Part shown: piece after piece, positions 37,029-64,000 of the stretch | Numbering within the stretch: position 1 is the first letter of the stretch | How the letters are laid out: every line of letters begins with the position of its first letter | Source: a virus | DNA: 64,000 nt | Strand: one strand, 5' to 3' | IMG/VR virus record: IMGVR_UViG_3300045125_000039 | Location: 4,475 to 68,474 of that record | Translations under genes and position numbers: made by a program | The notes under the pieces: generated by a model | What the model saw: the letters and a program-made list of their open reading frames with translations, nothing else | Databases searched by the model: none | Told to the model about the DNA's origin: nothing

Positions 37029-37083
37029 CTTTTTTTGCTCCTTTTATGGTTCTATTTCTATATATAAAATTAATAATTTAGAC

Positions 37084-38329: not shown

Positions 38330-38337
38330 TATTTATA
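38330..38337 (-). promoter_or_regulatory. T4-type late promoter TATAAATA upstream of gp22
   Basis: + strand tatttata 38330-38337. Confidence 0.65.
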
Positions 38338-38987: not shown

Positions 38988-39261
38988 TTATTTTTTCCCT
39001 TTAATTGCTTTGCCAATTGCTTTTCTACGATTTAGGAGATACTTATCAGTACCATCAACATTACCGTCATTGTCAACATCCTTATCTTCTTTTCCGACAG
39101 GATCTAATCCTTCTTCAACTTGTTTTTTGTAAATTTCTGCTGAAAGTTGAACTCTTCTTTTCGTTTAAAGCATCATATGCTTTTGCGTATAATGTATCGA
39201 ATATATTCTTACGAAACTCTTCTACATCACCGTCTACCAATGATTCTATAAAATTTGACAT
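38988..39261 (-). CDS. Prohead core protein (gp67/gp68 position), frameshifted
   Basis: [28 protein letters not shown]...[36 protein letters not shown]. Confidence 0.7.
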
Positions 39262-39309: not shown

Positions 39310-42300
39310 TTAACCCACTTCACTTGGTGCTCTTGCACAGCAACAATAACCAGGACAACCAGATCTACAATCATCAAATGGTGCATTTCCACAATTACAT
39401 ATAATAACATTGAGTCCTTGACTACATGGGTTTCCTGCACATACACAATTTGTTGTGCTATAACCGGGAGTTCCTTTTGGACAATATTCACCAGAACATT
39501 CGGGTTCCTCGCCACCCCCACCACATCTGTCTTCATTGTAACAGAAAGCACAACTAGTAGATAAAGGACATCCAGTAGCACACGGAGTTACGCCGCAATC
39601 TACTCCACACCCTGAACCATTTGGACAAACAGCACAATTATTTGCATCTGGACAACCGCTATTGCAAGGGTTTGTTGCACATGCACCACCACAGTTTGGA
39701 CTATCCGGACATACCGAACAATTATCTGCATCTGGACAACCAGATGTACATGGACTTATTAAACACTGATCTTCTGTTTCATTACAATTTGGACCATTTG
39801 GACAGACTGTGCAGTTATTTTCATCAGGACATCCGGCTGTACAAGGTGATGATAAACACAAATCAATAGAAATTTCAATTTCAGGTAATTCTATGCAACC
39901 ATTTTCATCACAGTCACAATGTATTCTATTTTGCATATTGTATAACAAATTATCAGACAAAAGAGTATAGTCTGGTGTCTCTGGAAATAAAGTAACACTC
40001 ACTGGTGAATCATATATCTTCTCAAGTACTGGACTCGTTTGGAGGTCTTCCAGTGTTTTTTATAGACTCTTCTATCGCTGAGAATAATGCATTTTTATAA
40101 TTTGTTTCTAGATGAAATGGTGCTTGTTTTTTGGTACACAACATTTGTGTTGATCTGATAATCTATTTCCTTCTGGATTTAAATTCATAGCATAAGAATT
40201 ACAATTTCTAAGATAATATCTAATACCAGAAGATATTCCTCTATCATTATTTCCTACATTTTCTACACATTGATTTGCATATATTACTTTATTTTGTTTT
40301 GTCGAAGACGCTGTTTGAATACAATCTCTTCTCCAATAATCATTCGAAACCAATTTGATTATATGACTTGATGTTTTTGGTGTCTTATAATCTTGACCAC
40401 CGGGTGATGGTATTACAGTAGTGCCAACTACACTATTGTTATAATCTCTAAATTGATTACAACCACAATCTTGACCTGTAGGACAATCTGAACCAACTCT
40501 ATTATCAAAAGGATATCCTGATGTATCCGATCCCGGTGATTGACAATATTTTACATCACCAGTGAATCCAGTTACATTTAAATCTACTTCTTTTCTAAAG
40601 ACAGTAGCACATGGTAATCCCACACACATGTGTTTTGATACTGCTCAAAACCCAGGAGAACCACCAGGTTTTTTCTCAAGATTAATATTTTGCACCACAG
40701 ATGGAGCACCACATTCACCACAAGAACTTGTTGCGGTTGTACACCACTCATCTTGTATGTTTGATGTTCTTGGTAGTGGTTGATTATGGCATACTTTATG
40801 GGCACGAAGTGCACCCTCCTGGTCTTTGTCTTGGGCAATTATTAAGACATGATTGTAAATTAAAATAATAAGTTCCAGAAGTTGGTTCAACTGTTGTGCA
40901 TTGACAGCATTGACAATTTGGCACAGAACCACATGTAGTTGGTTGGCATATTTTGACATGTATAATATTGACACTTGTAAAAACTTGCTCCAAGTTTATC
41001 AATACAAGTTTGGAAAACTAAACTATCCAAATTCAATCCAAGTGAAGTTGCTCTTTCTAATGTCCAGAAACAATCATAATTACTAAAATCTGTAGGAACA
41101 CCATTTATTACAACTGTTCCTAATGCTTTAATTGCATCACATGTCATAAGTTCACATGGAGAAGTTGGTACACCAGATGAATCTACCTCTTGTAGGATCA
41201 CAATCTGTGCTGTTATATAAATCTCTTACTTTCATCGTTCTCAGAGCACAAAGATTTGTAGAATCTGATATGTTTATTACTTGTCCTGTCTTTGGATTTG
41301 TTCTACAAACTGTTGAAACATCTGGTTGCATACTACCACACCCACACCAATTTTCGCTAGCACAATTACAACCACTTGAATTAAAAGTAGTAAATGCTTC
41401 TGATGTGTTTGTTCTAATATAACTGTATGATGTATTTGATACTGGTTGAGATTTGTGATTACCGGGACACAAATCCCAGGTTATTATATCTCTGATATCT
41501 GGTGTTGACCAATTTCCTGTTTTTGGAAATGGATTTTCTTCATCTATTCTTGGTATGTTAAAACTTTCACATGGATTTGTACAGCAATTTTTAGAGTTCA
41601 CATTCTTCAACAGGAGGTTGTAACTCTCATCTATTTCTGAAGTAACAGTATAGTTTTGACAATCTTGAACTACTAGATTTTAAACTAGTTATACCAGTAT
41701 TCATGCATGAAATATCCTGGCAATCTGTTACCAGATTCATCATATCTTGGTGCTCTGTTACAATCATCAGTTCCACCAGCACCTACAACCTCATCTACTG
41801 AACATGGAAAAAGAATTTACAACATTGTGAATTGCAAAATCCTGAAAGTTGACTACCTGATTTTATACAATTTTCATAGGTGTCAACATTAAATAATCCA
41901 GAAGCAGACAACTCTTCTATTCTTCTCCTACAAGAATCACATGGGAATGGATTTAATTCGCCATTTCCACTAGATGCTATACAACTTGTATCTGGACAAC
42001 ATTTATACCATTTACAACCACCTTCATTTGCGGTTTTACCACAACCAGATGCTCTAGCAGAAAATACTCCGCTTTTACCATTATAATTTAGCGTTAAATT
42101 AATTGTATTCATCCTCCACCATTTCCACAACTACCAGGAGAACCTATGTTGCTATCTATTATTGCAACTATTATATTTGTTATCACTTCCACTCAATATT
42201 GGTGCTATTTCTGCTGCACTCAAAACAGTAGACCCTGATGGACTACCAACTCCACACCCACCTGCACATGCAGATACTGCTCCTATTGCACCTTTTGGTA

Positions 42301-45300
42301 CATATGTTTCGGTAGTTGAATTATATTGAAACCACTCAAAGCCAAATCTACCACATGAGTCACATCTTCCGGAAAATTTAAAGTTGCATTGGCAGATGAA
42401 TTATAAACAAACGATTGACTTGGTTCATATGAACAACCACCATTTTGTCCACTACTATTTAAAAAACTTACAGGAAACCCTGCTGCATATTCTAATAGAT
42501 CTTTAGTTACACCTTGACCTAAAATCATCAAAGAAATATTACCAACAAACCCACAGCAAGTATTTGGTCTATACCCATTACAAGCAGATCTTGGTTTATA
42601 ACCATTGCGCTTTTAAATTATCAAATATATACATGGGCCAGGATTTGAAAAACCAGATAACCCATTAGAGGCAGTTACTATACTGTAATCTTTATAAACT
42701 CCTGGCATAATTTACCCCCTCTAGGTATAAATGGTGCACACCCCTCAGCATTGCATGTTGGATCTGCCAAGCATTCCGATCTAGTCCAAGATCTTGGTTG
42801 TCCATCTGGTGTAGTTTTGTCAATATTCCTTCTGCTCTATATTTATCACAAGGGTTTGCACAGCAACAATTTTCACCACATTCATTTTTTGGATATAAGT
42901 CATAATTGTTTTTTCTTGTTATACAGTTCCAATAATCAGTCAAAGACTTATTAACATATACTGGTGGATATACATCAATACCACTTCCAGGATTTTGTGC
43001 TTCTGCTGCATTTCTTAAAGCCCTAAGTGTTGGATGTCCAGATGAACCATATTCATCCTTGAGATCACATGACGCATCACAGTTAAATTTGCAGCAACCA
43101 GATCTTGAACAAATATCAATTTGTGAACATGTAAGATTATATCTTTTGGACAACCGCTACAGTTTATACTACAACAATTTCTATCTTTACATTTTCTAGA
43201 TGCAAACACTCCTGATTGTTTAAACATTGCTCATATTCTGATATATTATCAGCAACACAAAATCTGCACACTCTTGACAACATCCCTTTCTATCATAAGA
43301 ACCACCATCTGCAGCAACACATTCAACATAATCAAGTGGCGCACCTACGCAAGGATTTACACAACAACTACTTAGATCTGGATTGCCTGCACATTCTGGT
43401 GATTGTAGACATGCATCATATTCCATCTTTGTATTGCTTGGACATGAATAACACTTACTCCTCTTGCACTCAGGATCATCACATTCACAATCTATTCTGT
43501 TCTCTAAAATATATGATAAATTTTTACTATAATAGTTCAAGTTTGGTCTATAATTTGATTGTATATCTGAACCATCGTGTAGAGCATCTGCTCTAAACAT
43601 TGTGTTTGTTTCGCCATAAGGAGTAAATTCTTTAATAAATGGTCGCTTATCTTTGGCAAACAGCATCTACTCACATTTGAAATTTCTGCGTTCGGACTTA
43701 TGTTCATAGAATATGAAGCACACTTTTCTATAAAATACATACCCAAAGCATTTCCGCTGCTTCTAAAGATGTATCGTTTAAATAAGGATCTCCAACATCT
43801 TCAAAACAATTCGATGTGTATATAACTGAATTTTGTGAAGCATCTAAACTATCTGCTATGTTTGGAGACATTCTAATTGTACAATCTCTTTCATAATAGT
43901 CATTAGAAACTATTTTCATTATATGACTACCCTGAAAGGAGATCTCCAGAGTTGATCGGCTTCACTTCCGTCAACTGGTCTTTTCTGTCTATAGTTTTGT
44001 CCATCTGGATACAAGACCAATCAACATTTCTTGTTTGACTACAACCAACAGATTCCTCTAGATATTCTGGAACACTAATTGAAAAATTACAGCCACATAA
44101 AACATAGTCGCCACCACCATATTGTGACCAAGGTAATCCCGTTGTTTTAAACCCACCCTGTGTATTCCAATTAGAGTTTGTTATGTTTGGCTCGGTGATC
44201 TTTTCTACTATTGCTGTATCTACCAAGTGATGGAATTTATTTCCAACAAAAACAACCATGATTGTATTATCATCAAAAAATGGTTCTAGTGGAAGAGTGA
44301 CAGTTGCATTTGCAGTTTGACCAGTATTGCCCTTATTTGCACCATTTCTAAACCAACCAGAGTACAACAAATATTTCATAAAACACTTGTTGGATGTGCA
44401 TCTCCATCTATTGTTTTTTCTGATAAAATATTAAATGTATCTCTTTCTCTTCCGTCTATAACAACTCTTCCGTATGTTCTACAACTGTAGAAAAGATCCC
44501 ATTTAAAAAATGCAATAGAAACAGTCAATGCTTCAGAATGCATACAACCAAAATTTATATTTACTGTTGAACCCGGTGCTGCAACTAAGACATTATCAAA
44601 TTCATTTTCATTTACACCAAAGAACCTAAGTTCTTCTCTATTCATTCTTGGATGTCTTATTATAGGATGAACTTTTAAATCACCAGGATGATTTGGATTG
44701 CTTATTCTATTTACTCTTTTTATTACAGGAGTAATTTCTTGAAATTTTATTCTATATCTTTAATTATTGAATGGATTAAGCTGATTCCTCTTGTTCTTTT
44801 TCTTCTAGGTTGATCTGGATTAGTAGATAAGTGGTTGTCATTGTTTCAGAAACATTATTTCTCTTCCAACCAGCAGGATTATCTTTAAAACAACCATAAA
44901 AAACATGACAGAAAAAATCAAACCACTGACTACACCCTGCTTGTCCACCCTCCCATAATGCTGAACCGTTGGCAGTGACATTTCTTGAATAGTCAAAGTA
45001 ACCACATGCATAAGGATAATTGCTTCTTGGCACTCCAGGATCATCATCTTCTCAAAACTGTTTTACCAAGTGTTCTTCCCTGTGGATTATCTCCACCCTG
45101 AACAGTTCCAAAATAACCACTATCAATAGAGTTACCAACACACATGTGTCTTGATATATTAAAAAATCCAGGCTTACCGCCAACTGCTTTTTCCAAATTT
45201 ATATTACTAATTGTAGTTGGAGCACCACATGGTTGATATTGACATTGAATATCACTAGCAGGAACAGTTCCTTGAGGTGAAATTAATGGTAATGGTGGTG

Positions 45301-45322
45301 GTATATTGTCTTGTGCACTCAT
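39310..45322 (-). CDS. Giant cysteine-rich protein X (about 2000 aa if one gene), multiply frameshifted
   Basis: Plausible start MSAQDNIPPPLP at 45322. Successive Cys-rich ORF fragments join across frames to the clean stop after GYCCCARAPSEVG at 39310. The last 230-aa fragment has about 39 Cys by my count. Confidence 0.6.
39525..39860 (-). repeat. Four tandem 6-Cys repeats (about 28 aa): C..PC.xGCP...NC.VCP....C
   Basis: PCTAGCPDENNCTVCPNGPNC / PCTSGCPDADNCSVCPDSPNC / PCNSGCPDANNCAVCPNGSGC / PCATGCPLSTSCAFC. Confidence 0.9.
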
Positions 45323-48300
45323 GGACTCGATCCAGATTTAGTATCGTATTTTTTAAATCTACCATTTCTCTTATCGGATTGATAAGGGTTTCCACAGACC
45401 AATATTTAGAGTGTTTCTGTTTTGTATTAAATCCAGTTTAGTTGTCATATTGACATAGTTGCTACAGCACCAGCCAACCAGTATTTGTGTTTCTAAATGT
45501 TGGATCATAATCATTTTCTTTACAAAATTCAGTATAATCATTTAATGGAATAAATGAAGAGCAATCGATTTTAGATGCTTTTGTTTTTGTATTCTTCCAT
45601 CCACATGTTCCTTTGTTATTGTCTCCATCAACTTCCCATATCCACAAATCGATTAAATTACCATCTTTGTTTTTTAAATTTCTAACATATTTGTTCGTCG
45701 CATATGTTATAGCACTACCAGTATTCACCATCTCTGTTCAGTGTATGACCATGAAAATTAAAACCACCAACTACTCCTGTGTACATTTCTTGTTTCAAAT
45801 GCATCGTTGCCATCTTTATCTTTTACTTTTAATTGTGTTTTCCATTCAACATACCAGAACAAGTAGTTTTCAGTTATTTGTTTGTTTGCTGCTTGTATTG
45901 CTTCTTCTTTAGTAGAAAACGCGACCAAACCATCCATAGTCGCTCCAAGGTAAACTTTTTGATTATACTTATCTGGATCTATTGCCATTCTTTGAAATAA
46001 ATCTATATCAGATGTTATTTGTTCACCGAGGATAATCTTTCCATCTACTATAAAGACAACACCAAGAATTTATATGTGCTTGATATGGTAACACAGAAGA
46101 ACATTTTTGACCAACTCCTAACTGTATAGACAGCAGGAGTTCCTCTTCCACCTTTTCTATCAAACTCTATGCAGGAACAATAGTTCTCGGTTATTACTGT
46201 TGACATTAGTTTGGGTCCTACTATATTTGGTACTACAGGTCCTGTAATATAGGAGTCACATCACCAGTTGATGCTTTCATTGAACATAGAATTGTTTTTG
46301 TTAATAGCACGCCTGGTTTATAGCCCCATTCACCCCATTCTTCCGTGCCTTTATCTCTACAATTAATATGATAAGCATCATGTAATCTTCCCAATTTAAA
46401 TAATGTTTCATTAAACTCTTGAATTTGATTACTCTTCATCAACACACCAGAGTTCAAGAATGAGATTGGTCTATTCCAGAAATATAGTGGATCAAAGTTA
46501 TCGACATAGAAATTCTGGAAGTAACCACTGTTCAATCCATTATTCAATAGGAAAGAAGTTACATATTGATATTTGTATGCTCTCTGCTGGACCCGGTTCA
46601 TTTGAATTTTCTGCTTGTAGTCTTGAATTCTTATATGAGTCCCAATTTAATCCAACATTAAATGTTCTAAGCGGAGTTCCGTTTATGTACTTATTTGGAC
46701 CAACAAGAGGATACAACTTATCTGTTTCTGGACTAATTGTTATAGTTTTTGTTCCATCAATTTGTAATTCATAAACACTTGGGAACGCTTCAGTTCCTGG
46801 ACTTAGAGTGTTACAACCAGTAACTCCTGTATATGTTTCAGAATTCCAATATTTAATAGGAACAGCAGCAATCATTACTTCGTCCATACATGGTAGAGGT
46901 GAGCAAGAGCATCTAGATGAACCAATAAAAGATCCTGCACCAGCAGAGGTATTATCACATGGATAATATGATGTAGATGCTCTTCTACTATAATACAAAT
47001 ATGTTCTAGGAACACCTGCAGTATAGTTAGGATCTGTTGCTGCATATACAGATGGTAATCCCTTATATGCCAATTCTGCTGATGTAAATTCATTTTCAGG
47101 TGCTAACTTGACGCCAGTAACTACACTTAATGTTGAATGTGTTAATATTGAATTTGTAGAATCTGCTTCTGTTCTTAACTTCTCATAGCAAGAAATACAG
47201 AAAGGAACAACTGCTCTATCATTTTCTTTATTGTTTCCACAACAATTCCATAAATTATTTGCATTAAACAAATGTTCATACCATAATTTAGATGTTCCTG
47301 TTGATCCAGATGCTGCCAGTTCCAATAAGAACCCATAGGAACTAAAGATCTAAAACCAAGATCTGTAAACTTCTTGGACTTATCAAAGAACCACCATATT
47401 CTCTATATTGTGATTCATTAGAATCCCAACAGAAAGGACTCTTATCTCTTGCATATGGGAAGTATGGATTTTCTTCTGGAACAGGATTTTTTGATGGTAC
47501 ACAATCTGGGTCTGCAGCACTAGTTCTAATTTATTATCGACTATTGCTTCAACTTTTCTTATTTGAGGAAGATTTGCCTTCCATAAAGAAACATTATTCG
47601 CCTCAAGAGGTTGTTTGTGATTTGGAACCCAAGGTTCTGTTATAGACCAGTAGGTATTATTTTTATAAATTGGTGTCACCAGTTATATAAATGTCACCAC
47701 AACGAACACATCTACAATCTATGTTATATTTTAAATGTATAGAGGAACCAAGAACATCTATTCCAGACTTATTATAAAATGGACTCAATCTAGCAGATTC
47801 ATTTCTGCCAACATTTTTTAGTTCATAGATTGCATTTGTTTTCTTTTCCAAACACTCCATGCAGTCATCAAAGTAGAATCCTTCTGCCAATCCAAGATCT
47901 GAATATGTTGCTTGTTTGTATCCTTTTGCAAATGTAGCATCTGTTCCCACCACCAAGTAAGAATCTTCCAACATTGGAATCCAGTATTGATTTTGGGAAA
48001 TAACAGTTATCACCGTCCGTGAATATTTTACCAACAACATCACCAACAACTGTGAACTTTAATTTTCTAAATTCATCAACAGGTATATCTTTCAATTCAA
48101 ATGCAGAGTAATCTGGTGCTTCTTTATCTGCAAATTTTAACATCTTATCAATACTTCTTAATGGTTTGTATGAATTTACATCACACGATGAACATCTATC
48201 ATCTGTTGATCTTTTCTTACCACCAGACAAACAATTTGTATCTCTAAGGTAATCTGCATCACCAAAGTCTAAAGAGGTTCTACTTGGTCTGCAATATTCG

Positions 48301-49207
48301 AATGCAGTTTGATCAGCAATTTCCCCAGAACCAGTTCCAGTTATATAACCATTGAATGGTAAAGTTGGATTTAATGGAATTATAAGTTCCTTTGTTAATT
48401 TAACTCCTGCTGCTATTATTTGTGCAGGATCATATATTTGATAATATCTGACAGTTTGTGGATATGCTGCTTCGAGTCCCTTGAATCCCCAAACAGATCC
48501 AAAACGAGACTTCACCATATGCGTCTAGTGGATTTTCACCTTCTTCTCTTTGAAGATCGCTCTACTTGCCCAACAACCAACTACTTCACCAGAATTACAA
48601 CTAACCGCACACTGATAAAGTCTATTTGCACCATGGCACGGTCCATAACCAAGCCCAAAATCCAGACATTGCATAGAATTTATTAAAAACTTACTTCACC
48701 GTTTGCACTGGGAAATTTCTCCAACCAGTTGTGCTACTAGGAGTCCATGATTGACCATTGTATAATTTGTATTCAATATAAGCATCGGAGTAATAATAAT
48801 CGGTAGTGTTTGTTTCAATTCTGTTATCCACTATAGGCATGCCGCCGCCGTAATCTGGTGATCTATCTTCATCTAATACGCCAGATATTGAATAATCTAC
48901 TCTTGCCAATAAAATATCTGCAAGACATGATACTTTTTTATCACTGAATGGAGGGAATAGTGGTTTTTCACATTCGCCACAACTAGGAACATAATTAAAC
49001 CCTTGAGTATAATCAGAACAACCTAGAGAAGTACATCTGTTAAAACTAGCTCGATAACTTGGATCTCTGTGAGATTGACTCTTGACTATATCTTGTTTTG
49101 GTATTGTGGTGGATATAATCAAACCATTACTACCATCTACTCTTGATTTAAAAATAGGAGTAGTAGATTCTATAGTGATATAAAATGTTGATAGGTCTGT
49201 TGCTCAT
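45319..49207 (-). CDS. Large moderately Cys-rich protein Z (about 1300 aa if one gene), frameshifted
   Basis: Start MSNRPINIL at 49207. ORF fragments 48691-49122, 47868-48518, 47663-48049, 47383-47679, 46540-47325, 46233-46601, 45758-45988 and 45462-45731 overlap end to end. No family recognised. Confidence 0.5.
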
Positions 49208-49208
49208 A

Positions 49209-49792
49209 TTATCTTGTGATTGCTGGTGTTACTACGAATCTTCCTTGTAATATTCTAAAAACTACTGTATTGGAATCCAAACCATCAGTTATATTCTGAA
49301 AGTTTGCACATCAGTAGCAACGTGCTGGTAATTTATAAAACACTAGTTCAAGATCATACAGATAATTACCATAGTTTATTCTTCTTGTTATAAAAGATGA
49401 TAATGATATTTTTAAATTTGGTGTTGGTATTTGTTGTATTCCAACTGGTAATCCGTCTGATAGACTCAAATCAATTGCATTTGACCCTAGAGGATTATAA
49501 CTTTCCCCGTATAATGAAACAGGACCAGAGTCTGTTGCGTTCAGGGATTCAATTCTACTATTCCACCGTTTACAGAATTTCTAACTTGCATTTTTGCAAA
49601 TACACCACACTTACCTGCTCTAGTGGATTGTGCTAATTCTGTTTCAAATCCAGATGGTATTGCTGTTATCGAAGGTGCACGAGTATTGCCTTCATTTAAA
49701 TTAACAACTATATTTGTTGCGTCTTTAAATTTTAATTTAAGTTTATAACTAGTGCCTTCTTCAATTTGTATGTCATAATAGGCTGCTGGCAT
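49209..49792 (-). CDS. Adaptor/baseplate-upper-like protein (YDI..EEG type), frameshifted
   Basis: MPAAYYDIQIEEGTSYKLKLKFKD...AKMQVRNS...YDLEL...LQGRFVVTPAITR*. Confidence 0.55.
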
Positions 49793-51413
49793 CGAAAGGT
49801 TTACCTCCTGTTGGATCTGCTTGTGGTGCTACCGTATTTATACCACCTGCAGAGGTCTGACCACCAGTAGGTGCTCCGGGTTGACCCATTTCTTGTCCTT
49901 GTGGAGATAAACCAGCAGCAATTGATGCTTCTTGTTGCTTTTGCATCTGTATCATCTGTTCTTCAGTAATTTCAGCATCAATTTGTACAATATCTTGATC
50001 TGTTTGACGCAATAGATTCTTTCTTAACCATCTATCAGAATAGAATTTACCAGAATAGTCTGCTGCATCTCTTAGAATTGATATTCTATCTCTTAATATT
50101 TCATGCTTGCTTGGATTCTGCAAAGTAGGAGTCTGTAGCAAACTTAAAGTGTTATGTCTTGCTCGATACTCTTCCAATCATCCTCACTCATTACTTGTTT
50201 TGCTAATAATTGAACTCTCAAGAAGTTCAAGAATAATTCACTAAACTTTCAAACGAAGTCTATTAATAAACTTTGAAAATTTTAATTCATCTCTTGTAAT
50301 TTCAGATGCTCTTCCCATATTGAAATCCGTATTTCGGCTTCGATTCTGACTAATAGGAATGTTGAGTGACTTTAACAATTTCTTTTGGAAGTAAAGAACA
50401 TCTTCCATCTCTCCAAGATTTTGACCACCGGGTAAAGTTGAAATTTCTGTTCCTTGACCACCTCTCTACGGGGTAACCAATAATCTTCCAACATGCTCAT
50501 GTGTTTACGATCATCACGAATTTCTCCGGTATTTGCATCGTAAACAAGTTTATTGCGAAATCTATTCATCTGATCACGCATATATTGTTCTGCTTTATTC
50601 TTTGGCAATGAACCAACATCGATATAAAATACGCGACGCTCTGGTGCTCTTGACCTAACGGTAGATTACAGTAGCATCTTCAACCATTCTCAATTGATTG
50701 AGTGGCTTAATTGCTTTGTGTAAATAACCAACTATTCTTTTACTTGCAGTAGTCATATAACCCAGAATGGACATAGTTTATGCTATCTGCTGGATATTCT
50801 TAATCCCTTTGTATCATATGGATTTAATTTTTCATAGTTAGAAAATACATAATATTCCTTTACATCTTTGACTAGTGGAACATTTGCAAGTGTTGTATCT
50901 TTCTTTACTTCTCTTATCTTCTTTATTAGAAGCGGATCTATAAGACGAACTTCCTTCAATCCCATCGTTGGGTCGTCGTGTAATATGTGATGATAATACA
51001 TTCTACCATCAACATACCATTTTCTAAAAATTTCAATACCCTTCTTACTAAAATTTAGTAGAGTATAAAATTATATCAAATTCACCATAGATAATATCTT
51101 TTATTTCATCTGGTATATTTACTTTATCCAAATCTAATTGAAGAACTTTACCAGTTGCATCTTCTGTTATTGCATCATTGCAATATCGTCAATTGCAGCA
51201 TCCACTTCTGAATGCAGAGACATTTCTCTGTATTTTCTTATTAGTTCAACATCACCTTTGAGTGTTCCATCCAAGTCAATATATTGACCTTGAAAGCCCA
51301 CCACCTTCGACAACACTAGCACCGTCATCAATTGCTTTCGGTACAAATGACTCTACTTTGTCTTGTGTGTCGTTCTTTTTTCCAAATGTAAAACCAAATA
51401 ACTCAAATGCCAT
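49773..51413 (-). CDS. gp20: Portal protein, frameshifted
   Basis: MAFELFG, WYVDGR.YYH, RAPERRVFYIDVGSLPKNKAEQY, RNKLVYDANTGEIRDDRKHMSMLEDYWLPRREG. Confidence 0.96.
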
Positions 51414-51429
51414 AATAAAGATCCTTTTC

Positions 51430-52169
51430 TAGAAGAAGAGTAAGGGGTTTGTGATGTCTAATTCCAAACCCATTACCACCTGCTGTTGATATACCGAAGG
51501 AATTGTTTCCACTACCTCCACCAGTACTTATGCCGAATGAATTTCCTCCTGCGGTGGTAACACCGAATGAGAATCCATTTCCTGATTGTGACTGGTTGTT
51601 TACGCTAGGCACCAACACCAGCAACATTGACTGCACTGTTTGTTTGGTATGGTGAGAGGCTCTGTCACGAAATATGAGTACTTAAAGGTTACTTGGAATT
51701 CTGAAACAGTATCATTTTGATCATAACCTAGTTGTACGGATGATACTAATTCTTACTTTATATCAAAGAACTGATACCATTTTACTATTTTGTAACTTCT
51801 GTCTAACTGTGCTACAGTAGCAACACCGAATGCTTGTCTTGGGTTTGGATACTGTGTTGAGTTACCAGCATGGGTATTAAACAATTCATTCCACAATTCA
51901 AATGTATTTCTTAATGTCATATTTTGATCATTGATTACATCAATAGTCCAATCATCATATGTACGATCTCCGGGATAACAGTGCCATACGACCGAGGTAT
52001 GGAACATTTACTTCACCAAGATATGATTGTGGTAACATTGCTGCTTTGCAGAAAAACTGTAATTGTGGAAGTGGACTCAACGGGACAAACCAAATTTACA
52101 GAGTAAAGATTTGGTCTTGAACCGCCGTCGAAAGCGGACATGAATGAATTGATTGAAGAGTCGAGCCAT
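51430..52169 (-). CDS. gp19: Tail tube protein with Gly/Phe-rich C-terminal extension, frameshifted
   Basis: GGSRPNLY, FFCKAATLP, PGDRTYDDWTIDVINDQNM.LRN.FELW, F.VTF.Y; follows gp18. Confidence 0.88.
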
Positions 52170-52214
52170 TTTTATTTTCTCCTTGATACCTCTATTTATG
52201 CCCTTTTTTTATAA

Positions 52215-54060
52215 TTATCCACCGAATTCTGCGAAATGTAACACCAGTTGGTGTTGCAACAAAGTTAAGACGAATGAAGTTGATGCTTCTTGCTGGTGCA
52301 ATGAAGATATCTGCTACGAATTGATTTTGATCAATTACAGATGGTGTGTTGTTTGTTTCATCACATATAATTGCATATGATGTTACACCTCTCTTGCCCT
52401 GTACATCTCTTAAGAATGGTTCTACGAGTTGACGGAACTGAGCTCTTGTAAACGAATCGTTGAATTCGAAGAGTTGGAACTTAGCAGCAGTTGCAATGGT
52501 CTTTTCTAGAACATTGAAGAGTCTGCGTACATTGATTCTATCGAAAGCACTTGGTTTAGTTTGTAGTGTCTTATCACCAAAGAGAATTGCTCCTGATCCT
52601 TGGAAAGAAACTACTGGATTGATATTTACAGAATACAATTTATCTCTATATTCCTTTGATGGGTTCCATACCAACTTTACTATGTTATTGATACGACCAC
52701 GATCTATAACCTGCTGAGTGAATACCAAGGTTCTTTTGTATTGTCTGTTCTTACACAGCAACCTGCAATATCACCACATAGTGGAACATAGATGAATCTA
52801 TCATTGAATCTGTCGTATTGATATTTTGCATTTCCATCCATAACACCATATGAGGATGAGACCGATTACACCTCTATAGGTATTTAAAACATCGAAAACA
52901 TCATCATCTGTTGTTGTTGTACCAATTTCATTTACAATTTCTAGTGGTTTTGCAGATACGAAAGCGATGCAGTCTTGTCTAGCAGCAGCAATTTCTATTA
53001 CTTTCTTTGCATTTGTTGCATTCATGTGACCTGCGATTAGGAGAGAAACATCTACTTCTTCTGTGTTGCTAAACTCTCTTTCAAATGTATCAGCCTTTAG
53101 TGTAAATATACCTGCTTCATCATTTGAAGTAATTGGTAGTGTTTGTCCTCTACCATTCATTGTATATTGCTTTGTATAAAGAATTTCATAAGGAATTACT
53201 TCACCTGTTGAAGAATTAAATCCAATTTCGCTTCCCCATGATCTTTGTGTTTCCTGCTTGTGTTGTGTAGGTTCCTGCATTGTCTGTATCGTTACCTGTT
53301 CCTGGGTGTTCTCCACACCAAACATACAGCAGACTTGTTGTTATATAACATTTCTATAATAAATTGAAACACCATCTGCAGATTTTGCATCTGATGCTTT
53401 GGAAAGGTTTGGAATACCTCCAACACTGTTCCTTTTTGTCCTGAGAATGTACCGAGTTCATCGATAACTACTATGTGAATTTCGTCATCAACATTTGATG
53501 AGCCTGTTAAATTTTGCATAGTCTGATGTACCCAGGAGTTCCTAATTTATTAATCCATGTATCATGATATGCAGTTGAAATCGCATCTGTTTGATCTGGA
53601 TCTGCCTGATCCACTACAATGACTGTTAGGCTTGTTTCTAGTGATCCTGGGTACTTAGCAGCAAATCTCCAATTGCAATCTGTATCAATATGTTCCAGCG
53701 ATTGATTGTCTCTCGTAATCTTCTTGATTTGCAATTGTAAAGTCTGTACCAGAACCACAGTCTGTTGCATTATAAGAGTTGGTTTGGTTTTGCTCTTACA
53801 ACTGTTAGAGCACCGCCGTAGGAAAGATAGTTAGCAGCAACGAACCAATCTATTGAATAGAAGACATCTGTTACGCTTCTAAATGGTTTGCCAAAACATT
53901 TTGTAACTTTTTCTTCTGAGTCGATTAGTACTTTTGGTCTACTGGGACCCCATTGAAATACGCCAACATAACCTGCTGAGTGTGGTTGCAATTTGTTGGA
54001 ATCACACTGGTTAAGTCAAATTCTTTAATTTCTACTGCCGGGACTTAATTGGAATGCCAT
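52215..54060 (-). CDS. gp18: Tail sheath protein, frameshifted
   Basis: MAFQLSP..EIKEFDLT, GVFQWGP, DEIHIVVIDE.G.FSG..GTVLE, LFGDKTLQTKPSAFDRINVRRLF, DIFIAPARSINFIRLNFVAT. Confidence 0.96.
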
Positions 54061-54120
54061 TTTCTCTCCTTATTCGCCCTATTTTGGCCTAAGGTTATGT
54101 ATAAAAATCATTATTTCTAT

Positions 54121-55756
<1,636 letters not shown>

Positions 55757-55767
<11 letters not shown>

Positions 55768-56215
55768 CTGTTTCTAATTGTTTAATTTCTTGCATCTTAC
55801 CCTTCAATAACTTCTGTAATTCTGTAGTACTACCAACAAATATGGATTGATTGGTAATATTTTGGTGCAGATTGAGTAGAAGCAGGAGATTCTTGTTTTT
55901 ATTTCCTTTTAATTGTTTATGTAATTGTAGAAGATCCTTATTTGCATCCGCTACACTTTTAATCAACTGTGATACGACTTCATATGCTCTTGGAGAATCA
56001 CCTTCAGAAGCAACATGAAGAATACCGTTAATTGCTTTATTTCCCTTTTCTATAATACTATACAAATTTAGTCTTACGGCTTCAAAATCAGTAGTAGCAA
56101 CATCCTGTTTTTCAACTGGTGTTAGTACTAATGGCTCTTGTTCTATTATTTCATTGGAAGTTTCTACATTAAAAACTTCGCTCAATTTTTCATCAATAGA
56201 TTTTTTATCTTCCAT
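55757..56215 (-). CDS. gp16: Terminase small subunit
   Basis: DFEAVRLNLYSIIEKG..AINGILHVA.E.DSPRAYEV..QLIK...TNQSIFVGSTTELQKLLK. Confidence 0.9.
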
Positions 56216-56227
56216 AATATACCTCTC

Positions 56228-56379
56228 AATTATCTATAATTACGAATTTGTATCGTCACTATAGATTATATCTTGAAACAAATTTAATTGTTTATTTGCT
56301 GTATATTCAATAAAATTTTCTTTTAAATTTTGAATTAATTTTTCTTGTTGTTGTTGTAAAATTGTTTTTCGTCAGCCAT
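56228..56379 (-). CDS. Small hypothetical protein (frameshifted)
   Basis: AAGGA RBS then ATG at 56379 (MADE...), ending near ...FVIIDN* just upstream of gp16. Confidence 0.35.
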
Positions 56380-56391
56380 ATACTATATCCT

Positions 56392-59300
56392 TTAAGTTGC
56401 TTGTTTGCAGCAGCAATAAACTCTACATACATCATTTGATATACATTCTTCATAGTTGTCAGAACATGTTGTGCATGTGGCTCTGGTGGACAACATTCAT
56501 TTTCCACACAGTAAACATCTGTTTGACATTCTTTGTAATAATAGTTATTGCAAAGATCGCATGGGTTATTACAACAATTATTTTGAACACATACTGGATC
56601 TGCTGAACACTCTGCATACCCTTCTTTAGTTCTACTCTTGTTGCATGGTGTACATGGATTTGGTGGGCAACAACCTTTTGTAACACATGTTGCATTTTGT
56701 ATGCATGTAGCATAATCCCCTGGACAATTTTCACATGGTGGGGTTTCTCTGCAACATATATTCTTTACACATTCAAGTTATATTAGAACAATTTTCATTT
56801 CTACAACCAAAACATGGATCGGGTGGTGGTGCATTACAACATCCCTTATCTGCACAACCAGAAGTTGTTATACAAGTTGGATATGCTGATTCTTTATATG
56901 GTGGACAACTTGAACAAGGATTTGTACAACATGGTTGACCTGTTCCCCATGTATCAATACAGAAATTCTTATTTTGTTTATTAATACATGTTATATATTG
57001 ATTTCTAGTATCGTCTTGACAACGACTAGATTTACAACTACAGCAACCAGGAACACCAGCATCTGGTGAGTTGCTACATCTTGGATCTGGGTGTGTGCAT
57101 GAAGCATTAGGATGATCTGGATCATTCTTACAATCTAAGCATGTTGGTGTAGTTGGACAACATCCTGCTGCAACACATGCTGAATTTTTGTTACATTCGA
57201 AGTAATTTGTTGAACAACCTAAACATGGATTTGTACAACATGGATGATCCGGACTCTGTTGTGGTGGGACACAATCTGGGTTTGCTAAACATGCTTCATA
57301 TTCTGCTTTAGTAGAGGATCTGCAATTATTTAAAATACAAGGAGCAAGACCACAACATCCATTCAGATTACATCCAGGATTTAATATGCATGTATAATAA
57401 GAATTGGGATCTGCATCTAAACAACCTTCGCATGGATCTATTGAGCAACAACCATTGGATGCACATGTTAGATTAGAATAACAATCTTGTGGATTTTCAT
57501 AATCACAACCAGCACATGACGGAGGTTCTGCATATACAGCAACCTGCATTCTTACAGAATGAATCTTGCATACATGTTGTAAAGTCTTTGGAGCAGTTTG
57601 TACATGGATATACACAGCACCCTGCTTCATTGCAGCATTGATTTTGTTTACATGCCTTCCAGCCCATTTATTGTGGCTAGAATCTGGACAATTCATATTT
57701 GTACAATTGCAGTGTGAACAACAACCATTTTGAACACATTGTGCGTTTGCTTTGCATTCTGCACATGTATTTGGACAACCGGAACAAGGTTCTGTTTCTC
57801 TTCTAATACAACATTTGTTAGTTGCACAATAGGAACTTTCAATACACAATTGATATTCTTGTTCAGTATCACATACACCACCATTGTCTCTGCAATGGTT
57901 GCAAAGATCACATGGTCCGGGTGGTGGAGCATCACAGCAACCTTTAGCAGCATATGGTGATCTTTAAACACTGATTATAATCTTTTGGTTTTCCTATGCA
58001 TGGATTTGTACAGCAACCAGCAGTTACACATGAAGGAGTTGTTCTACAAATATCATATCTTAATTTTGTATCAGTTAAACACTGTGATCTATTACATACA
58101 CAACATGATTGATCTTGACATAAAGAATCTGCATTACCGCATGCAGTTGGGCTTACACAATGCACATGTAAACACACCACATGAACATCCTTTCTGTCTG
58201 TATATTGTTTAAATTCATTATTTGTTCCAGATTCTGCGGCCTTACATGCTCTCCATTTTTCTATGGTATCAATAATTGGCATACCTGAGCATGGATCACT
58301 ACAACAACCAGAACTTAAACATGTAGTATTCGTTAAACAATTTTGATATTGTGTTACAGTTGTACTAGCACAAGCAGAGTCATTGCATGGACAACAATCT
58401 GTTTCTGGTGCTGAATTATTTTTACATCTTGTATCGGTACTTGTACACGAAGTAGAACCACAATACGAACACAAGAAAGAACCACAACATGCGTTATCTC
58501 TTAAACCACTGAATATACCAGTGTTTTGCAATACACTGGTCATATAATTGTGGTGTGGTTATTAAAGATAAAACTGGAACACCACTTAACTTACAAGGAT
58601 CATCACAGCACGAAGATTGTGGACAATTTACTACACAATTCTCATATTCTGCCTTTGTGCTAGTTGCACATTCACTCTTTGAACAAATACAACATCCACC
58701 TTCCCATGTTTGACAAATTTGGGGCAGGTACACTGTTCAAAGTTTCTTGAACATTCACAATATGAAGTATCCAATTCACCATCACCATCCCTATCAAATG
58801 GTTGAGTACAATAAGAACAATTAAAATTACAACACTCTAATAGACTCCACTGTATATTATTAGCATTAGTATTAGCGGTATCTACACAATTCCAATAAAT
58901 TGATGGAGCACCTGTACATGGATCTGGATCCACAACAATTAATATTTGGACAAGATGCAATACAATTTAACCATTCAGATTTTGTAAATCCCATTGATGT
59001 ATCTGATGCGCTGACAAACTGGATTATCATCACATGTACAACACGATGGACATTGTGAAAATGTGGTGTTTGCACAAACTGTCACCGGATCCGAACCACA
59101 CCATGAACAATTCCAATTTCCACAACATGCTGTATCAAAGCCTTCCAAATCCAGAGTAAGCACCAGTTCTTGTTATGCACTGATTATATGTCACTCCATC
59201 TGTTGGTGCTGGTATAGATGCACATGGAGTTTACACAACAAGCCTGGAGTTGGACAACCACCTTGTGCTATAGATTTGATGCAATTTTCATATTGTGCTT

Positions 59301-61240
59301 TTGTTGTTGTAGCACATGCTGGAATATTACAGACACAACAACCATTACTGGAACATAGTGGTTCAGAATTGGCACACACTGCTACTGGATTAGCACCACA
59401 CCATGTGCAGTTAAATGATCCACAACAAGCAGGATCATAACCAGCGTATATTCCCTGACCTGCTATGCATTGTTTGTAAGAGGTTATACTTGTTGGTGGT
59501 GTTCTTGTACATGGATTTGTACAGCAGTTACTATCTCTACAAATTTGAGTTGCAGAATTTAGAGCGTTTATACAATTTTCATATTGTGCTTTTGTTGAAG
59601 TTGTACAAACAGAATCATTGCATACACAACAATCTGTTCCAGGACTTGAAGGGTTCTTACATCTTACATCTGTGTTTAAACATATATTTGGTTGAGTACC
59701 ACAGTATTCACACTTGAATGTTCCGCAGCATGTACTGTCAGTTACTGTACTGAATTTACCTGTCTTTGCTAAACAAGCATCATAGTCTGCTACTGTCTTG
59801 ATTTCTGACTGTGCTTCTTTTCCACCAGTTGTTAAACATGGATTTGTACAGCAGCCATTTGTTGTGCATTCTGTATGTGTTAAACAATTCTGATATTCTG
59901 TTATTGTATCTGATGCACATTGTGGGTCAGCACATGCACAGCATCCACCTTGAGGAATACTTGTATCACTAAATCCTTTTCTACAATTTGGATTTGGACT
60001 ATTGCATGGATCTGAACCACAATCTCTTAAACAATCTTTTATACAACACCCAAACTGCATGCATATTGAATCCTCTTCACATAACCAATAATCATAAGTA
60101 TTAACACATAATGGTTCTAAAGTTGCACAACTATCTACACAACATTCCTGACAAGGACATGATATAATGCAATTTTCATATTCTTGTTTAGTATTTGTAA
60201 AACATTCTGTTCTTACTTGGCCGTCTGCCTTAACACATGGACTTTGACCACATGAACATCCAGTTATATCTGGGTCACAGATACCACCAGATGCATAATC
60301 TCCCAATCTATTCTCGCAATTAAAATATTTTGTACAATAATCTGGATCGGTTGGATTTATTAGACAAGTTCCCGGACATGCTATAGCACAAACCAAGACC
60401 CCAATCTTCCCAAAATTTACAATTTGGAGAATTTTGTGTTTCTGAAAAATTTAAATCACTACAATAAACTGGTTCATTATTTGCATCCATGTATGCTATT
60501 GTTGTTTGACAGGAACAACCCAAATCATCACCTATTGAACCCAATCCACATGGTTTATAGTTTCCAAGAGAACCACATAAACTGCCACAAGAATTGGAAA
60601 CACAGAAATAAGAATCCGATCCCGGTTGTAAATTTATTGGTTTATTTATTCTAGAATAACAAAGTCTTTTTAAATCTCTATCTGTTATATCTTCGCAATT
60701 TTCTAAATTATCACAACCATAATCTGCTGCATCATCATAAAGTGCAGAGGAATCTGAAAATATACTATTACATGTAATTGCTTCTATGTAAAGTGTATCA
60801 TAAACTGCACCATATGTCTCACCAGCATCACTATAACCTTCTGCACAACCTGTATCTGCTGGAAAAAGTTTAGAGTGAATACCATCAGCTTAGTGGTTTG
60901 TAGCATCTTACTTCGCTAACTGCATGGCCAATTTGTTTTTTTCTCCGAAGCAGGATAAAAGGTTTGTTGATTTGTACCTATATACCAAAATTGTTTACAT
61001 TTACAACAAGCATTTGGTGAAGTTGCGTGACAGTCTCCCCCTTCCTACACCATTAGCACAACAATTTTCTTTCATTATTATTTAATGAATTTGGTTTGCA
61101 ATAATGTCTTCAACAGGGTTTGTTGTTCCAACAGCATGGTGACTCTCCTACAATTACAGTTACCATCAGAACAAGGTTTTATACATGAGTCAGGTGTACA
61201 ATCTGGACACGGATTTGGTGTGCAAATGAACTATATCTAA
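56392..61240 (-). CDS. Cysteine-rich repeat region of a giant protein (about 1600 aa; start not resolved), multiply frameshifted
   Basis: Fragments 59191-60396 (about 64 Cys in 401 aa by my count), 57944-58543 and 56773-57849 among others join into a continuous Cys-repeat reading that ends ...VCRVYCCCKQAT* at 56392. Confidence 0.75.
57950..59960 (-). repeat. About seven copies of a roughly 100-aa Cys-rich unit
   Basis: Unit CC.C....C...TK..YENC......C....CC.NPC......Y..C......CCG.F.C..CG..P..C; examples CCVCNDSVCTTSTKAQYENC, CCVCNIPACATTTKAQYENC, CCICSKSECATSTKAEYENC, CCPCNDSACASTTVTQYQNC. Confidence 0.85.
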
Positions 61241-64000
61241 CAGAATCTAATTGTTTTATTGTATCTTCTACTATTTCTCTTTTTACATCAGAAATATTTT
61301 GAATTAAATTTGGATTATTTAGATCAAGATTTGGTGCTGCTTGTCCTGTCATAAATGATGACAACATATTGATAGATTTATTATCAAGTTGCTGTTCATT
61401 AGCATTTTGAGTTGGTTGATTATCTATAAAATCGTTTAAATTAATTCTATTAATTTCTGGGTTTGTCATTTTATCCCGCACTTGTTGTATATTCTGGCGG
61501 TGTAGATATATTTCTCTTTATCCAAACTCCCCTCTTGATTGTGATGTGATATCTATGACTATAGTTTGTGGTATATCAGTATCAGTTCCAACTCTTGTTA
61601 ATTTTACTTTACCTGTTTGATAGAATTTTTCTGGTGGTATAGTAATTCTCCAAATGTATATATCAGTACCTTCAAGTTTACCTCATGATTAAATATTTTG
61701 TAAATACATCTGGGAATGTAATTCTATCAACAACTGTGGTTATATCACCTGTTGAATTTGAACAAGGAATTGTTAATCTATTATCACTTAATACTCTCCT
61801 CATCTAAAATTTGCTGCATTTTTAAAGTGCTTCCTGCAAATAGATTTAAATGTCTTGGTGCGTGTAGTAAGTGTGATATATTTGTTCAAACCAATGTGCA
61901 TAATATGAAATTTCATTATTATCATACACCAAACCACCTAATTCTCTTGTTGGCTATGGTTGCAAATGGCTGATTTATAATAATTAATATCTGATCTTAA
62001 AGTGTGCTCATTTCTTTAAGTTCATCTACAATAATTTTATGTGATAACTCTTGCTTCCACTTTGAAATAAAGAGTATCATCTTACTTTCCCAATAATAAC
62101 CTTTGATTGTTAATGGACTTGTGACATTGGCCAAAGGAATACGAAACTACCCAATTATTGCACCACTACCACCCACAATTTCCAAAACTTTAGATGTTGG
62201 ATCTTTTGTTCATCCTGATGGTGCATGTAATTGCATCTTTGGTATTATTGTTCCCGATATCAATTGAGTAACTGCCATATTTTTGCCCGAGTATTGTTGC
62301 TTTAAATTCTGCTGTTCTCATTGGATCTGAAACTGGATATCTCTGAATACCACTTTCTCCTGATTCACCACCATATGGAGATAGAACATGTGGAATCCAC
62401 TCTATATTTTTCTAAATCATTTTTGGAGGTTAGAGCATAACCAGATCTTATTAAAGTATATGTTTCTATACCAATATTCTATTGGCATTTTAATAATATT
62501 TGAACAATTACCATCTGGAGAATAAAATGGAGTATCTGCTGCATAAGTTTGGTTCATCATAATTTGAAACTGGATATGAAGGTCTACCACACCCCATATC
62601 GTAAGTATATAGGCCATATTATATTTTTTAATCCACTTACACTGCATTGTATAAATTAACTCTCTGTCATAGTTCTATCGTTATGTACATTAGGAACATA
62701 TTTCATTGCATCGTTAGAATCTTGCTAGAGTCAATGCTTCTTCTGCTGAAACAGGTTCTACTTCATAATGAATATATCTTACACATTGTTAAATTCTGGG
62801 AATTTATCTAATGCTTCAACGAACTGTTTATTAATATAAACATTGAAATACTGATGTCACCTGCCCACCGCATTCCAAGCAGCAATAACATCTGTTGCCC
62901 AAAAGAATAAGCACTAAGTCCTGCACCGATCGCCCAATCCGGTTGGCCCGAATTTGAGTCTTAATCTTCCTGCTGTTTTTCTTGGTATCAGCGAAACATG
63001 AATCTGGAGAACCTGTTTGACTGTTTCCAGTTGATGGTGCACAACCATAATGTGTCCAATATGTTGAAGGATATTTGCCAACAGGTGGGTGCAGTTTCTC
63101 CGGGTTTTACAGCTGCGTTTATATATGGTTCTAGTAAATAATACCAATCAGATGTAACCTAAATTTCTACCAGTTAGATCATTGAATCTAGAAACAAATT
63201 CTTCTGCAAATGTTTTATTGGTTACTGGGCTTTTAGTGTTGTAAATCTTGAGTCTGCAGTTATTGCTTTAAATATTCTAGAGTCCTGTAGTCTTCTAGTT
63301 CCATCTCTATTTGGGAAATATCTTCCTGCACTTTCTAAATGCCATATGTATTGTGATTCTTTATCATCCAATAAATAATCAAATTTTAATCCTTCATCTT
63401 TACACCTTTGTAAGAATGCAGTTACAGATGATTGACCATCTTCTGCATTTTTATTGAACCAAAGTGTTGGGAATCTTTTTCCATCATATACTGTTCCATC
63501 TGTCGTATTTGCATAATAATCAACTGTAACATCTTCAAATACTTATCTCTCCACCAAGGAAATAAACCAATCTTCTACCTTCTGGTATTGCATTTAACCA
63601 AGATTTAAATGTGCCAATCGAATCCTTTACTCCTGTCAAGGAGTAATGGATCTCTTTGACCATTGCTTCCATTAAATCTTACATTTACTAGAGGAACTAT
63701 TGCTTTTGTATTGCATAATTTGCAGGATTACCATGAAGAAATTCATTACCCCACCAATGCATAATCTGCAACATTTATTGGAGTAGAAAATTTTAATTCT
63801 GCCAGTAACTTCCCTGAACTAGAAGAACCAGAAGTAACAGTTTTATAAACATAAGTTTTGAAGCAGACAATGTTGGATCTATATCATAATATGTTGATAT
63901 ATCATTTTCTATTATTTTGTTGCTATCTTTTTGGAATGAAGAACTAGTTTCTGTTGTTTTTCCTATAAATTTCTAAACTATAATCCAGGAGTACAATAGA
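61240..64000 (-). CDS. Unrecognised coding sequence, heavily frameshifted; probably the non-Cys N-terminal part of the giant protein and/or upstream genes
   Basis: Protein-like fragments (61179-61481, 62417-62647, 62914-63147) on the minus strand run directly into the Cys repeats near 61240; no family recognised. Confidence 0.4.

Follow-up and report, generated by a model that had tools for sequence, protein, structure and literature searches.

Cysteine-rich insertions in the structural gene block of a T4-like phage fragment and their terminal Tyr-Cys-Cys-Cys motifs

We analysed a stretch of 64,000 nucleotides (the window) corresponding to bases 4475-68474 of the IMG/VR virus record IMGVR_UViG_3300045125_000039, a single linear record of 74,392 bp with an estimated completeness of ~33% (CheckV). 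All recognisable genes of the window are carried by the minus strand. Two insertions in the conserved gp13-gp23 structural block encode proteins of an undescribed cysteine-rich module family. Island 1 is situated between the portal gene gp20 and the prohead protease gene gp21, and island 2 between gp15 and gp16. An initial annotation, made from the letters alone, had noted that a protein of each island ends with Tyr-Cys-Cys-Cys (YCCC) shortly before the stop codon, and had proposed two giant paralogous proteins that co-assemble with the capsid.

The structural block and its two insertions

Using tblastn with proteins of the cyanophage P-TIM40, we located gp17-gp23, gp3, UvsY, UvsW, gp55, gp47 and gp46 in a T4-like order, with a major capsid protein 44% identical to that of P-TIM40. 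A collinear block gp15-gp16-gp17-gp18-gp19-gp20 ... gp21-gp22-gp23 was obtained from tblastn with P-TIM40 proteins and those of a related contig, L002, and from Pfam labels on L002 and on another relative, L004. When the window was compared with 50,697 phage genomes by megablast, the sole match was a 104-bp segment in gp21. The conserved T4-like genes are all frameshifted or carry in-frame stops (for example, gp23 at 35592-37043, gp17 at 54125-55760 and gp46 at 28010-29724). L004, an 8.7-kb metagenome contig with a clean assembly, shares 94.6% identity with window positions 44223-35512, and the two differ by 49 insertion or deletion events (indels), ~1 per 180 bp; 42 of these are not multiples of three and 12 are associated with homopolymers. 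Comparison with L004 therefore assigns the fragmentation of the window's genes to assembly error, and it takes clean relatives to show the gene structure. The window thus represents a T4-like phage in fragmentary, error-rich form; the relatives known for this phage are from freshwater metagenomes. Lengths and termini of open reading frames (ORFs) anywhere in the record can be interpreted only with a clean relative at hand. We also considered an alternative genetic code; reassignment of TGA, TAG or TAA restored no long ORFs, and the breaks are indels plus a few substitutions relative to the clean relatives.

The slots gp15/gp16 and gp20/gp21 are kept in L002, L003, L004, L005/L006, L008 and L013, and both islands co-occur in L002 and in the IMG/VR contig of L005/L006. 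The metagenomic homologues fall into island-2 proteins (P0002, P0003 and P0012), the gene C family of island 1 (P0004, P0008-P0011 and ORFs of L008 and L013), gene A (P0005), gene B (P0006) and a protein of 90 amino acids (aa; P0007). P0002-P0004, P0008-P0012 and the L008 and L013 ORFs are all unannotated, being named "hypothetical protein" or not named.

Read from these relatives, island 1 is made up of several predicted genes and not of one giant protein. In the order of transcription, and with the flanking genes, they are:

49900-51298, minus strand: gp20 portal, frameshifted, flanking island 1 (tblastn)
49212-49792, minus strand: 196-aa gene, the first of island 1, directly after gp20 (66-73% identical to the L002 196-aa gene; PHROG 1084, function unknown)
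46320-49197, minus strand: protein Z, ~1,000 aa, ~3% Cys (57-60% identical to a 1,009-aa gene of L002)
45331-46157, minus strand: homologue of the L005 295-aa gene (tblastn)
42712-45322, minus strand: gene A, ~870 aa (L004 gene A/P0005; repeat profile; alignment A3; orthologues L005_863 and L008_879)
40796-42708, minus strand: gene B, ~626 aa, 8.5% Cys (P0006 mapping)
39310-40792, minus strand: gene C, 496 aa in the clean relative (P0004, 91% identical; alignment A1; terminal pattern)
39337-39348, minus strand: YCCC codons of gene C (direct reading; the stop after GYCCCARAPSEVG is at 39310-39312)
38988-39261, minus strand: 90-aa small protein between gene C and gp21 (P0007)
38333-38987, minus strand: gp21 prohead protease, flanking island 1 (57% identical to P-TIM40 gp21; PF03420 in L004)

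In L004, the corresponding order is A (at least 503 aa), B (626 aa), C (496 aa), the 90-aa gene, gp21, gp22 and gp23. The N-terminal domain of gene A is paralogous to gene C; the Cys-rich tail behind it has a super-repeat of the island-2 type, and the protein ends in ...CAPFIPRGG in its clean relative. Gene B has one CCTNPC, at 41586, and ends in ...GGCTSCP in its clean relative. Gene C consists of an N-terminal domain of ~290 aa, four PCxxGCPDxNNCxVCPxxxxC repeats and a terminal unit that ends with GYCCCARAPSEVG and the stop; L004 has a Leu codon in place of its in-frame TAG at 40642-40644. The alignment of genes A and C identified them as paralogues (33-34% identical) that share the N-terminal ~60 aa and a ~200-aa domain, with an insertion of ~330 aa in A. 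Hence the N-terminus is conserved and the C-terminus is variable in this pair. Protein Z had no Pfam or PHROG match. The case shows how an error-rich contig can turn several genes into one apparent "giant protein".

In island 2, a giant gene does occur:

61261-64000, minus strand, continuing to ~69,530 on the window's scale: low-Cys stretch upstream, which belongs to the giant gene itself or to one adjoining it (tblastn with P0002 and the L006 1,899-aa ORF)
56392-61260, minus strand: island 2, comprising the last ~1,650 aa, rich in Cys, of the giant gene located after gp15 (Cys density, frame path, repeat profile, homologues P0002/P0003/P0012)
56392-56475, minus strand: terminal unit of the island-2 protein, CTTCSDNYEECISNDVCRVYCCCKQAT and stop (ending common to P0002, P0003 and P0012)
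55760-56206, minus strand: gp16-like small terminase subunit, with its start just downstream of the island-2 stop (tblastn with L002 gp16, PF11053; 65% identity)

Island 2 has 15-20 Cys per 100 aa and is built of super-repeats of ~84-104 aa, with units of ~28 aa towards the C-terminal end. The low-Cys upstream region (~2,700 aa) begins directly after gp15 and is homologous to the N-terminal 2,100 aa, or two-thirds, of P0002. In L002, the Cys-rich part is fused to this 2,100-aa region in the single 3,687-aa protein P0002. The giant is split in the IMG/VR contig (L005 and L006) into a low-Cys ORF of at least 1,899 aa and P0012 (1,586 aa, 17% Cys). A form of 1,220 aa, P0003, lies directly upstream of gp16 in L003. 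The fused form in L002 and the split form in the IMG/VR relative make a "Rosetta stone" pair. Residues 5-91 of P0002 gave a weak match, over 87 residues, to the parallel beta-helix repeat protein 9rx2_A (E 1e-6); this putative domain had no Pfam match. At ~1,960-2,310 of P0002, a segment without Cys interrupts the Cys-rich repeats; by eye it resembles a beta-propeller (YVTN-like), and the window protein seems to be without it.

A cysteine-rich repeat shared by island 2 and gene A

The motifs that had been quoted for the two islands are present on the minus strand where they had been placed: TKMEYDAC at 43432 and CCVNPC at 43366 (both within gene A) and YVEC at ~43330 in island 1, and TKAEYEAC at 57312 and TKAQYENC at 59595 and 59304 in island 2; CCTNPC occurs seven times. 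They belong to two nested repeats. The small unit (~28 aa) has a CxxC followed by [YF]xxC-x5-C-x4-CC and is found in 12-18 copies per island-2 homologue. The super-repeat (84-104 aa, ~16 conserved Cys columns) includes TKxEYxxC...CCxNPC...NYFxC...GCC; the island-2 giant has many copies of it, and gene A of island 1 has one or two.

The similarity between the islands is better than that of shuffled controls. BLASTP of island-1 fragments against island 2 gave 42 bits (E 2e-9), compared with 30 bits or less for the shuffles (n=30). We then scored the island-1 proteins with a 43-aa repeat hidden Markov model (HMM) built from island-2 homologues only, using 200 block shuffles as controls. Gene A (P0005) gave two domains of 38.3 and 14.1 bits, where the shuffles reached at most 8 bits, and its orthologue L005_863 gave 28.3 and 22.7 bits (shuffles at most 4.1 bits). 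The island-2 ORFs of the window gave multiple matches. The score of gene B (P0006) was marginal, ~11 to 11.6 bits. The best domain in gene C had 0.1 bits, a score matched by 43 of the 200 shuffles, and nothing above the shuffles was obtained for protein Z or the 295-aa protein. In alignment A3, residues 245-330 of P0005 and 2691-2776 of P0002 are 40% identical over the full 86-aa super-repeat, with every invariant Cys column matched.

By these comparisons, the shared repeat is real and resides in gene A, and not in the YCCC-ending gene C, which lies two genes downstream of A. The islands are thus related through homologous Cys-rich modules only, and most of island 1 is without detectable similarity to island 2. 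The earlier view that the two islands are one family therefore holds for the shared modules only (the super-repeat in gene A, the terminal small unit in gene C) and fails for the larger part of island 1.

Searches beyond the close relatives returned very little. Against Pfam-A and PHROG, the Cys-rich proteins had no match, either as window fragments or as clean homologues; the exceptions in the islands were the 196-aa gene (PHROG 1084) and the 90-aa protein (PHROGs of unknown function). When 1.84 billion cluster representatives were searched exhaustively with phmmer, the window's own protein and P0002 and P0003 were the only matches (two related clusters), and a profile made from alignment A3 retrieved known members only from 5.8 billion proteins. 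A PDB sequence search with P0004 gave no match, two ESM Atlas feature searches gave no usable match, and a literature search on cysteine-rich virion proteins of T4-like phages found nothing specific. Judged by these searches, the module family is previously undescribed and very rare, and its members were found in a freshwater lineage of T4-like phages.

The terminal Tyr-Cys-Cys-Cys module

The gp16-like gene starting from ~56206 and the 90-aa gene starting from 39261 bound the two tails, and the YCCC motifs are therefore truly terminal. In island 2, YCCC lies at 56407-56418 on the minus strand, and the stop after VYCCCKQAT is at 56392-56394. This tail is out of frame with the upstream ORF; the alignment with P0003 places one frameshift at ~56476-56478, after which the protein reads ...CCPPEP|CTTCSDNYEECISNDVCRVYCCCKQAT. 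With this single correction, island 2 of the window has the full closing pattern. In gene C of the window, a gap of 6 nt relative to L004 leaves C-x3-C in place of C-x5-C, and YCCC is intact.

The clean relatives retain both endings. P0002, P0003 and P0012 all end with ...[YQ/YE][QE]CISNEICRLYCCC and three further residues (...CRLYCCC + 3), and are 51-61% identical over the C-terminal region. P0004, the clean relative of gene C, ends with ...GYCCCARAPSQGA (...FDDCRGDSGCTGYCCCARAPSQGA) and has the spacing [YF]xxC-x5-C-xxY-CCC, as in island 2. The claim that both proteins end with YCCC is thus borne out at both loci, with the correction that the island-1 protein is of 496 aa and not a giant.

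The YCCC tail is the last copy of the small repeat unit of island 2. This closing unit has seven Cys in place of six: the residue before the CC pair of the normal C-x4-CC is itself a Cys, and it is preceded by Tyr. Both in the island-2 giant and in gene C, 3-8 residues separate CCC from the stop. The strict pattern [YFW]xxC-x5-C-xx[YFW]CCC occurs once each in P0002, P0003, P0012 and P0004, always in the last unit and within eight residues of the stop.

A terminal cysteine cluster is also found on gene C orthologues with other tails. The N-terminal domain of P0008 is 56% identical to that of gene C, its Cys tail is unrelated, and it ends with ...AAEGFTCCC. At ~330-420, P0008 has two copies of GAC[CI]xxxGxCxxxTQxxCTxxGGNYxGNGSxC, a motif with no relation to the island-2 repeat. 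In the L013 orthologue, long poly-Thr/poly-Gly tethers lead to a small six-Cys knot ending with ...GGMCC. This orthologue (L013:2387-3670) has very long poly-Thr, poly-Gly and (T6-RAP/AAP)n linkers between the conserved domain and the 35-aa terminal Cys knot, a mucin-like tether that is unusual in a phage protein. As read from these proteins, the C-terminal cysteine cluster recurs on three unrelated tail designs and is not universal. The expectation that homologues elsewhere keep a terminal YCCC was thus confirmed for both islands, with CCC or CC closing the two unrelated gene C tails. The picture of two giant paralogues, in contrast, does not survive: the shared repeat (gene A) and YCCC (gene C) are on different genes, and tailless orthologues of gene C exist (described below).

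Could the shared YCCC have arisen by chance from the composition of Cys-rich tails, or from faulty assembly, with no function of its own? CCC falls within the last 13 residues in ~4.6% of shuffled P0004 tails, the window carries about one indel per 180 bp, and a test with a tail profile was negative. However, both termini are reproduced in clean assemblies, and [YFW]CCC falls within the last 14 residues in only 0.4-0.5% of the shuffles. The pattern of the general unit, for which only island 2 was used, was seen in 0.2-0.6% of the shuffled tails and the full-spacing terminal variant in ~1-2.5e-5 (a partly post hoc figure). Moreover, the motif is invariant in the island-2 homologues, which are otherwise 51-61% identical, and terminal CCC or CC appears again on the two unrelated gene C tails. 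We consider an origin by chance or by misassembly very improbable. As the relatives keep the Tyr-Cys-Cys-Cys closing module, a function for this tail is probable. A recent gene conversion linking both tails was rejected as well, since identity in the DNA alignment is limited to constrained codons.

Possible roles of the proteins and of their termini

AlphaFold2 predicted a compact fold with short helices for the 86-aa super-repeat (24 paralogous repeats aligned), with a mean predicted local distance difference test (pLDDT) score of 84.7 and a predicted template modelling (TM) score of 0.64. Compared with the PDB, this model had no Foldseek hit at E of 10 or below and no VIA-align hit at Z of 2 or above (48,161 chains); the best TM score in the ESM Atlas was 0.42. 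His is nearly absent (4 in 1,220 aa), and conserved Asp or His ligands were not seen. CxxC and CC pairs are frequent in the Cys-rich proteins, and the total number of Cys is odd in 11 of 13 family proteins. Because the conserved Cys of each super-repeat are ~16, an even number, and because His is scarce, the predicted fold compact and the total Cys count odd, we lean towards disulfides as the state of these cysteines.

The main competitor is that the repeats and the terminal CCC bind metal at all-Cys Zn, Cu or Fe sites, for instance on the axis of an oligomeric fibre tip. Metal sites with His ligands are present in T4 gp37 and gp12 and in the spike tips of P2 and phi92. Cytoplasmic synthesis without visible signal peptides, the frequent CxxC and CC pairs and the failure to find a phage-encoded oxidase in the partial record would all fit such sites, and AlphaFold2 also gives confident compact folds for metal-stabilised mini-domains. 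Against it stand the near absence of His together with the missing Asp/His ligands, the lack of any zinc-finger or metallothionein match in Pfam, and the even number of conserved Cys per unit with the extra Cys in the last unit only. We therefore regard metal binding as unlikely, though as a serious contender.

The gene neighbours terminase, portal, protease and scaffold had suggested assembly with the capsid, and the proteins could accordingly be head-associated (internal, in the core or decorating the capsid) and assemble together with the prohead. Island 1 does occupy the gp20/gp21 slot, where T4 has the prohead core genes gp67 and gp68, and the small 90-aa core-like gene adjoins gp21. However, the capsid proposal is based solely on gene position, in a conserved block that also encodes neck, sheath and tube. 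In island 2, the gene comes after gp13-15, which are neck and tail-terminator genes, and has a putative beta-helix fusion in L002, and one gene C orthologue has a poly-Thr/Gly tether. A candidate NLEK site in the N-terminus is not conserved among orthologues and hence gives no sign of a gp21 cleavage motif, and lengths of 1,600-3,700 aa are unusual for core proteins. A place in or on the head thus appears improbable. The putative beta-helix fusion, the adjacency to the gp13-gp15 neck genes, the pattern of constant N-terminus and variable C-terminus and the Thr/Gly tether of L013 lead us to prefer external appendages over internal head proteins.

Taken together, the cysteine-rich proteins may be accessory virion proteins, namely external appendages or adhesins with disulfide-rich stalks, in which the terminal Cys cluster serves for covalent cross-linking or docking. 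This is the reading that we favour, with a confidence somewhat short of even. In this scheme, the conserved N-terminal part would hold the proteins on the particle, and disulfides would form in the variable Cys-rich stalk after it has left the reducing cytoplasm. The extra Cys of the closing unit would leave a free thiol or a patch of three thiols. Through an intermolecular disulfide, this patch could staple chains together or dock the protein covalently to a partner, and both islands would use the same terminal tag. Cross-linking through the terminal CCC, which had been put forward from the start, may in this light be a reasonable idea.

Several observations weigh against the appendage reading. 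The virion location of the proteins was deduced from gene position and sequence features, and the proteins are made in a reducing cytoplasm. Direct reading of the N-termini of P0002, P0003 and P0004, done without a predictor, revealed no hydrophobic h-region in the first 30 residues. Glutaredoxin, DsbA and a thiol oxidase (Erv1/ALR) were not found in the 74-kb record, which is ~33% complete and frameshifted, and the control for Erv1 was silent everywhere; radical SAM (S-adenosylmethionine; PF04055) was likewise not found in this incomplete record, with positive controls that worked. On gene C (7 aligned sequences), AlphaFold2 reached a pLDDT of 30 only, and the odd parity of the Cys totals was counted over non-independent homologues. 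The statistics of the terminal pattern are partly post hoc. With a profile of the island-2 tail, the gene C tail did not stand out from shuffled sequences (144 of 1,000 were as good), and thus the match between the two tails is limited to the spacing of Cys and aromatic residues. Finally, five short gene C orthologues (P0009-P0011, L008 and L009/L012) are without the Cys-rich tail; they stop soon after ...NRI[DH]C[ED]C and end with ...C or ...CI, which makes the tag dispensable in the gene C family. A three-copy complex prediction with the last 121 residues of P0003 gave a score of 0.01 and speaks neither for nor against binding.

Lipidation was another suggestion for the terminal cysteines, which would then be S-acylated or prenylated to form a membrane anchor. 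The resemblance to the eukaryotic C-terminal CC, CXC and CCXXX motifs is formal only, and we found nothing to support the suggestion: no transferase was evident nearby, and the residues after CCC vary from 0 to 8. We know of no such C-terminal lipidation enzymes in bacteria, the hosts of T4-like phages. A lipid anchor at this position is scarcely credible.

For docking by cysteines, the nearest mechanistic precedent is the freshwater cyanomyophage Pam3, in which three Cys of one wedge region are bonded to the trimeric fibre's three Cys28 residues, and dithiothreitol (DTT) releases the fibres (PMC9942802). Pam3 is likewise a freshwater myophage with appendages fixed covalently through cysteine clusters (PMC9942802). 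It differs in that its Cys are in wedge loops and at fibre residue 28 and not at a C-terminus, in having no Cys-rich repeat stalk, and in a gene order that is not T4-like. The proteins described here, known from their sequences, have no sequence relationship to those of Pam3, and the comparison is one of analogy.

The metagenomic homologues have the same repeat family, the same slots (gp15/X/gp16 and gp20/.../gp21) and the same ...CRLYCCC ending; they differ in whether the putative beta-helix region is fused or separate, and in gene C, which may have such a Cys tail, another one or none. Among eukaryotic rod-like repeat proteins, collagen III (GPCCG) and the Cys-rich domains of Hydra minicollagens (ending with CC) have C-terminal cystine knots that staple trimers. 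They resemble the phage proteins in the use of vicinal chain-end Cys for interchain disulfides; however, they are oxidised in the endoplasmic reticulum and have no relationship to the phage proteins in sequence or fold. The neck appendage gp12 of phi29 and the P22 tailspike are beta-helix phage proteins, and in P22 a C-terminal cysteine annulus takes part in trimer assembly. Like the giant, for which a parallel beta-helix region is putative, both are large proteins of the phage structural module. They have no Cys-rich repeat stalk, and the giant has a weak N-terminal match to a beta-helix protein and no Pfam or PHROG match. The cross-linked phage fibre proteins with CXXX repeats and a neighbouring radical-SAM/SPASM maturase are also large, Cys-rich and encoded in the structural module; their repeats are different, and a radical-SAM gene was not found in the fragment. 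Sec-exported disulfide-rich fibres are further large Cys-rich proteins of structural modules, from which the present proteins differ in having no visible signal peptide.

A bolder version of the appendage reading, which we hold to be doubtful, combines a new cysteine-knot fold with a portable C-terminal tri-cysteine tag, both evolved in a small lineage of freshwater T4-like phages. The tag would close unrelated stalks (the island-2 giant, the four-repeat tail of gene C, the P0008 tail and the L013 Thr/Gly tether), and redox-dependent docking or cross-linking would fix interchangeable appendages at the same virion site once they have been released from the reducing cytoplasm. Such a tag would generalise the disulfide tether of Pam3. 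If it is a covalent docking or cross-linking site, redox-dependent virion assembly, of which Pam3 is the single known example, would extend to T4-like phages. A compact and very stable cysteine-knot scaffold, if present, might find use in protein engineering.

Structural proteins of phages usually contain little Cys, as they fold in the reducing cytoplasm. Here, 200-350 cysteines are spent on a single phage protein, the predicted repeat fold matches nothing solved, and an invariant Cys triplet recurs on unrelated tails.

Two minor observations concern the small genes at the borders of island 1. The N-terminus of the 196-aa gene and the first gene of a fibre cassette at ~22.7 kb (22651-22758) are 33% identical over 36 aa (E 0.006), a similarity too faint to build on. 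In the 90-aa protein, the C-terminal ~45 residues match the ends of several far larger PHROG families of unknown function (4359 and 3326; E 1e-14), which suggests a short C-terminal module common to this protein and these families.

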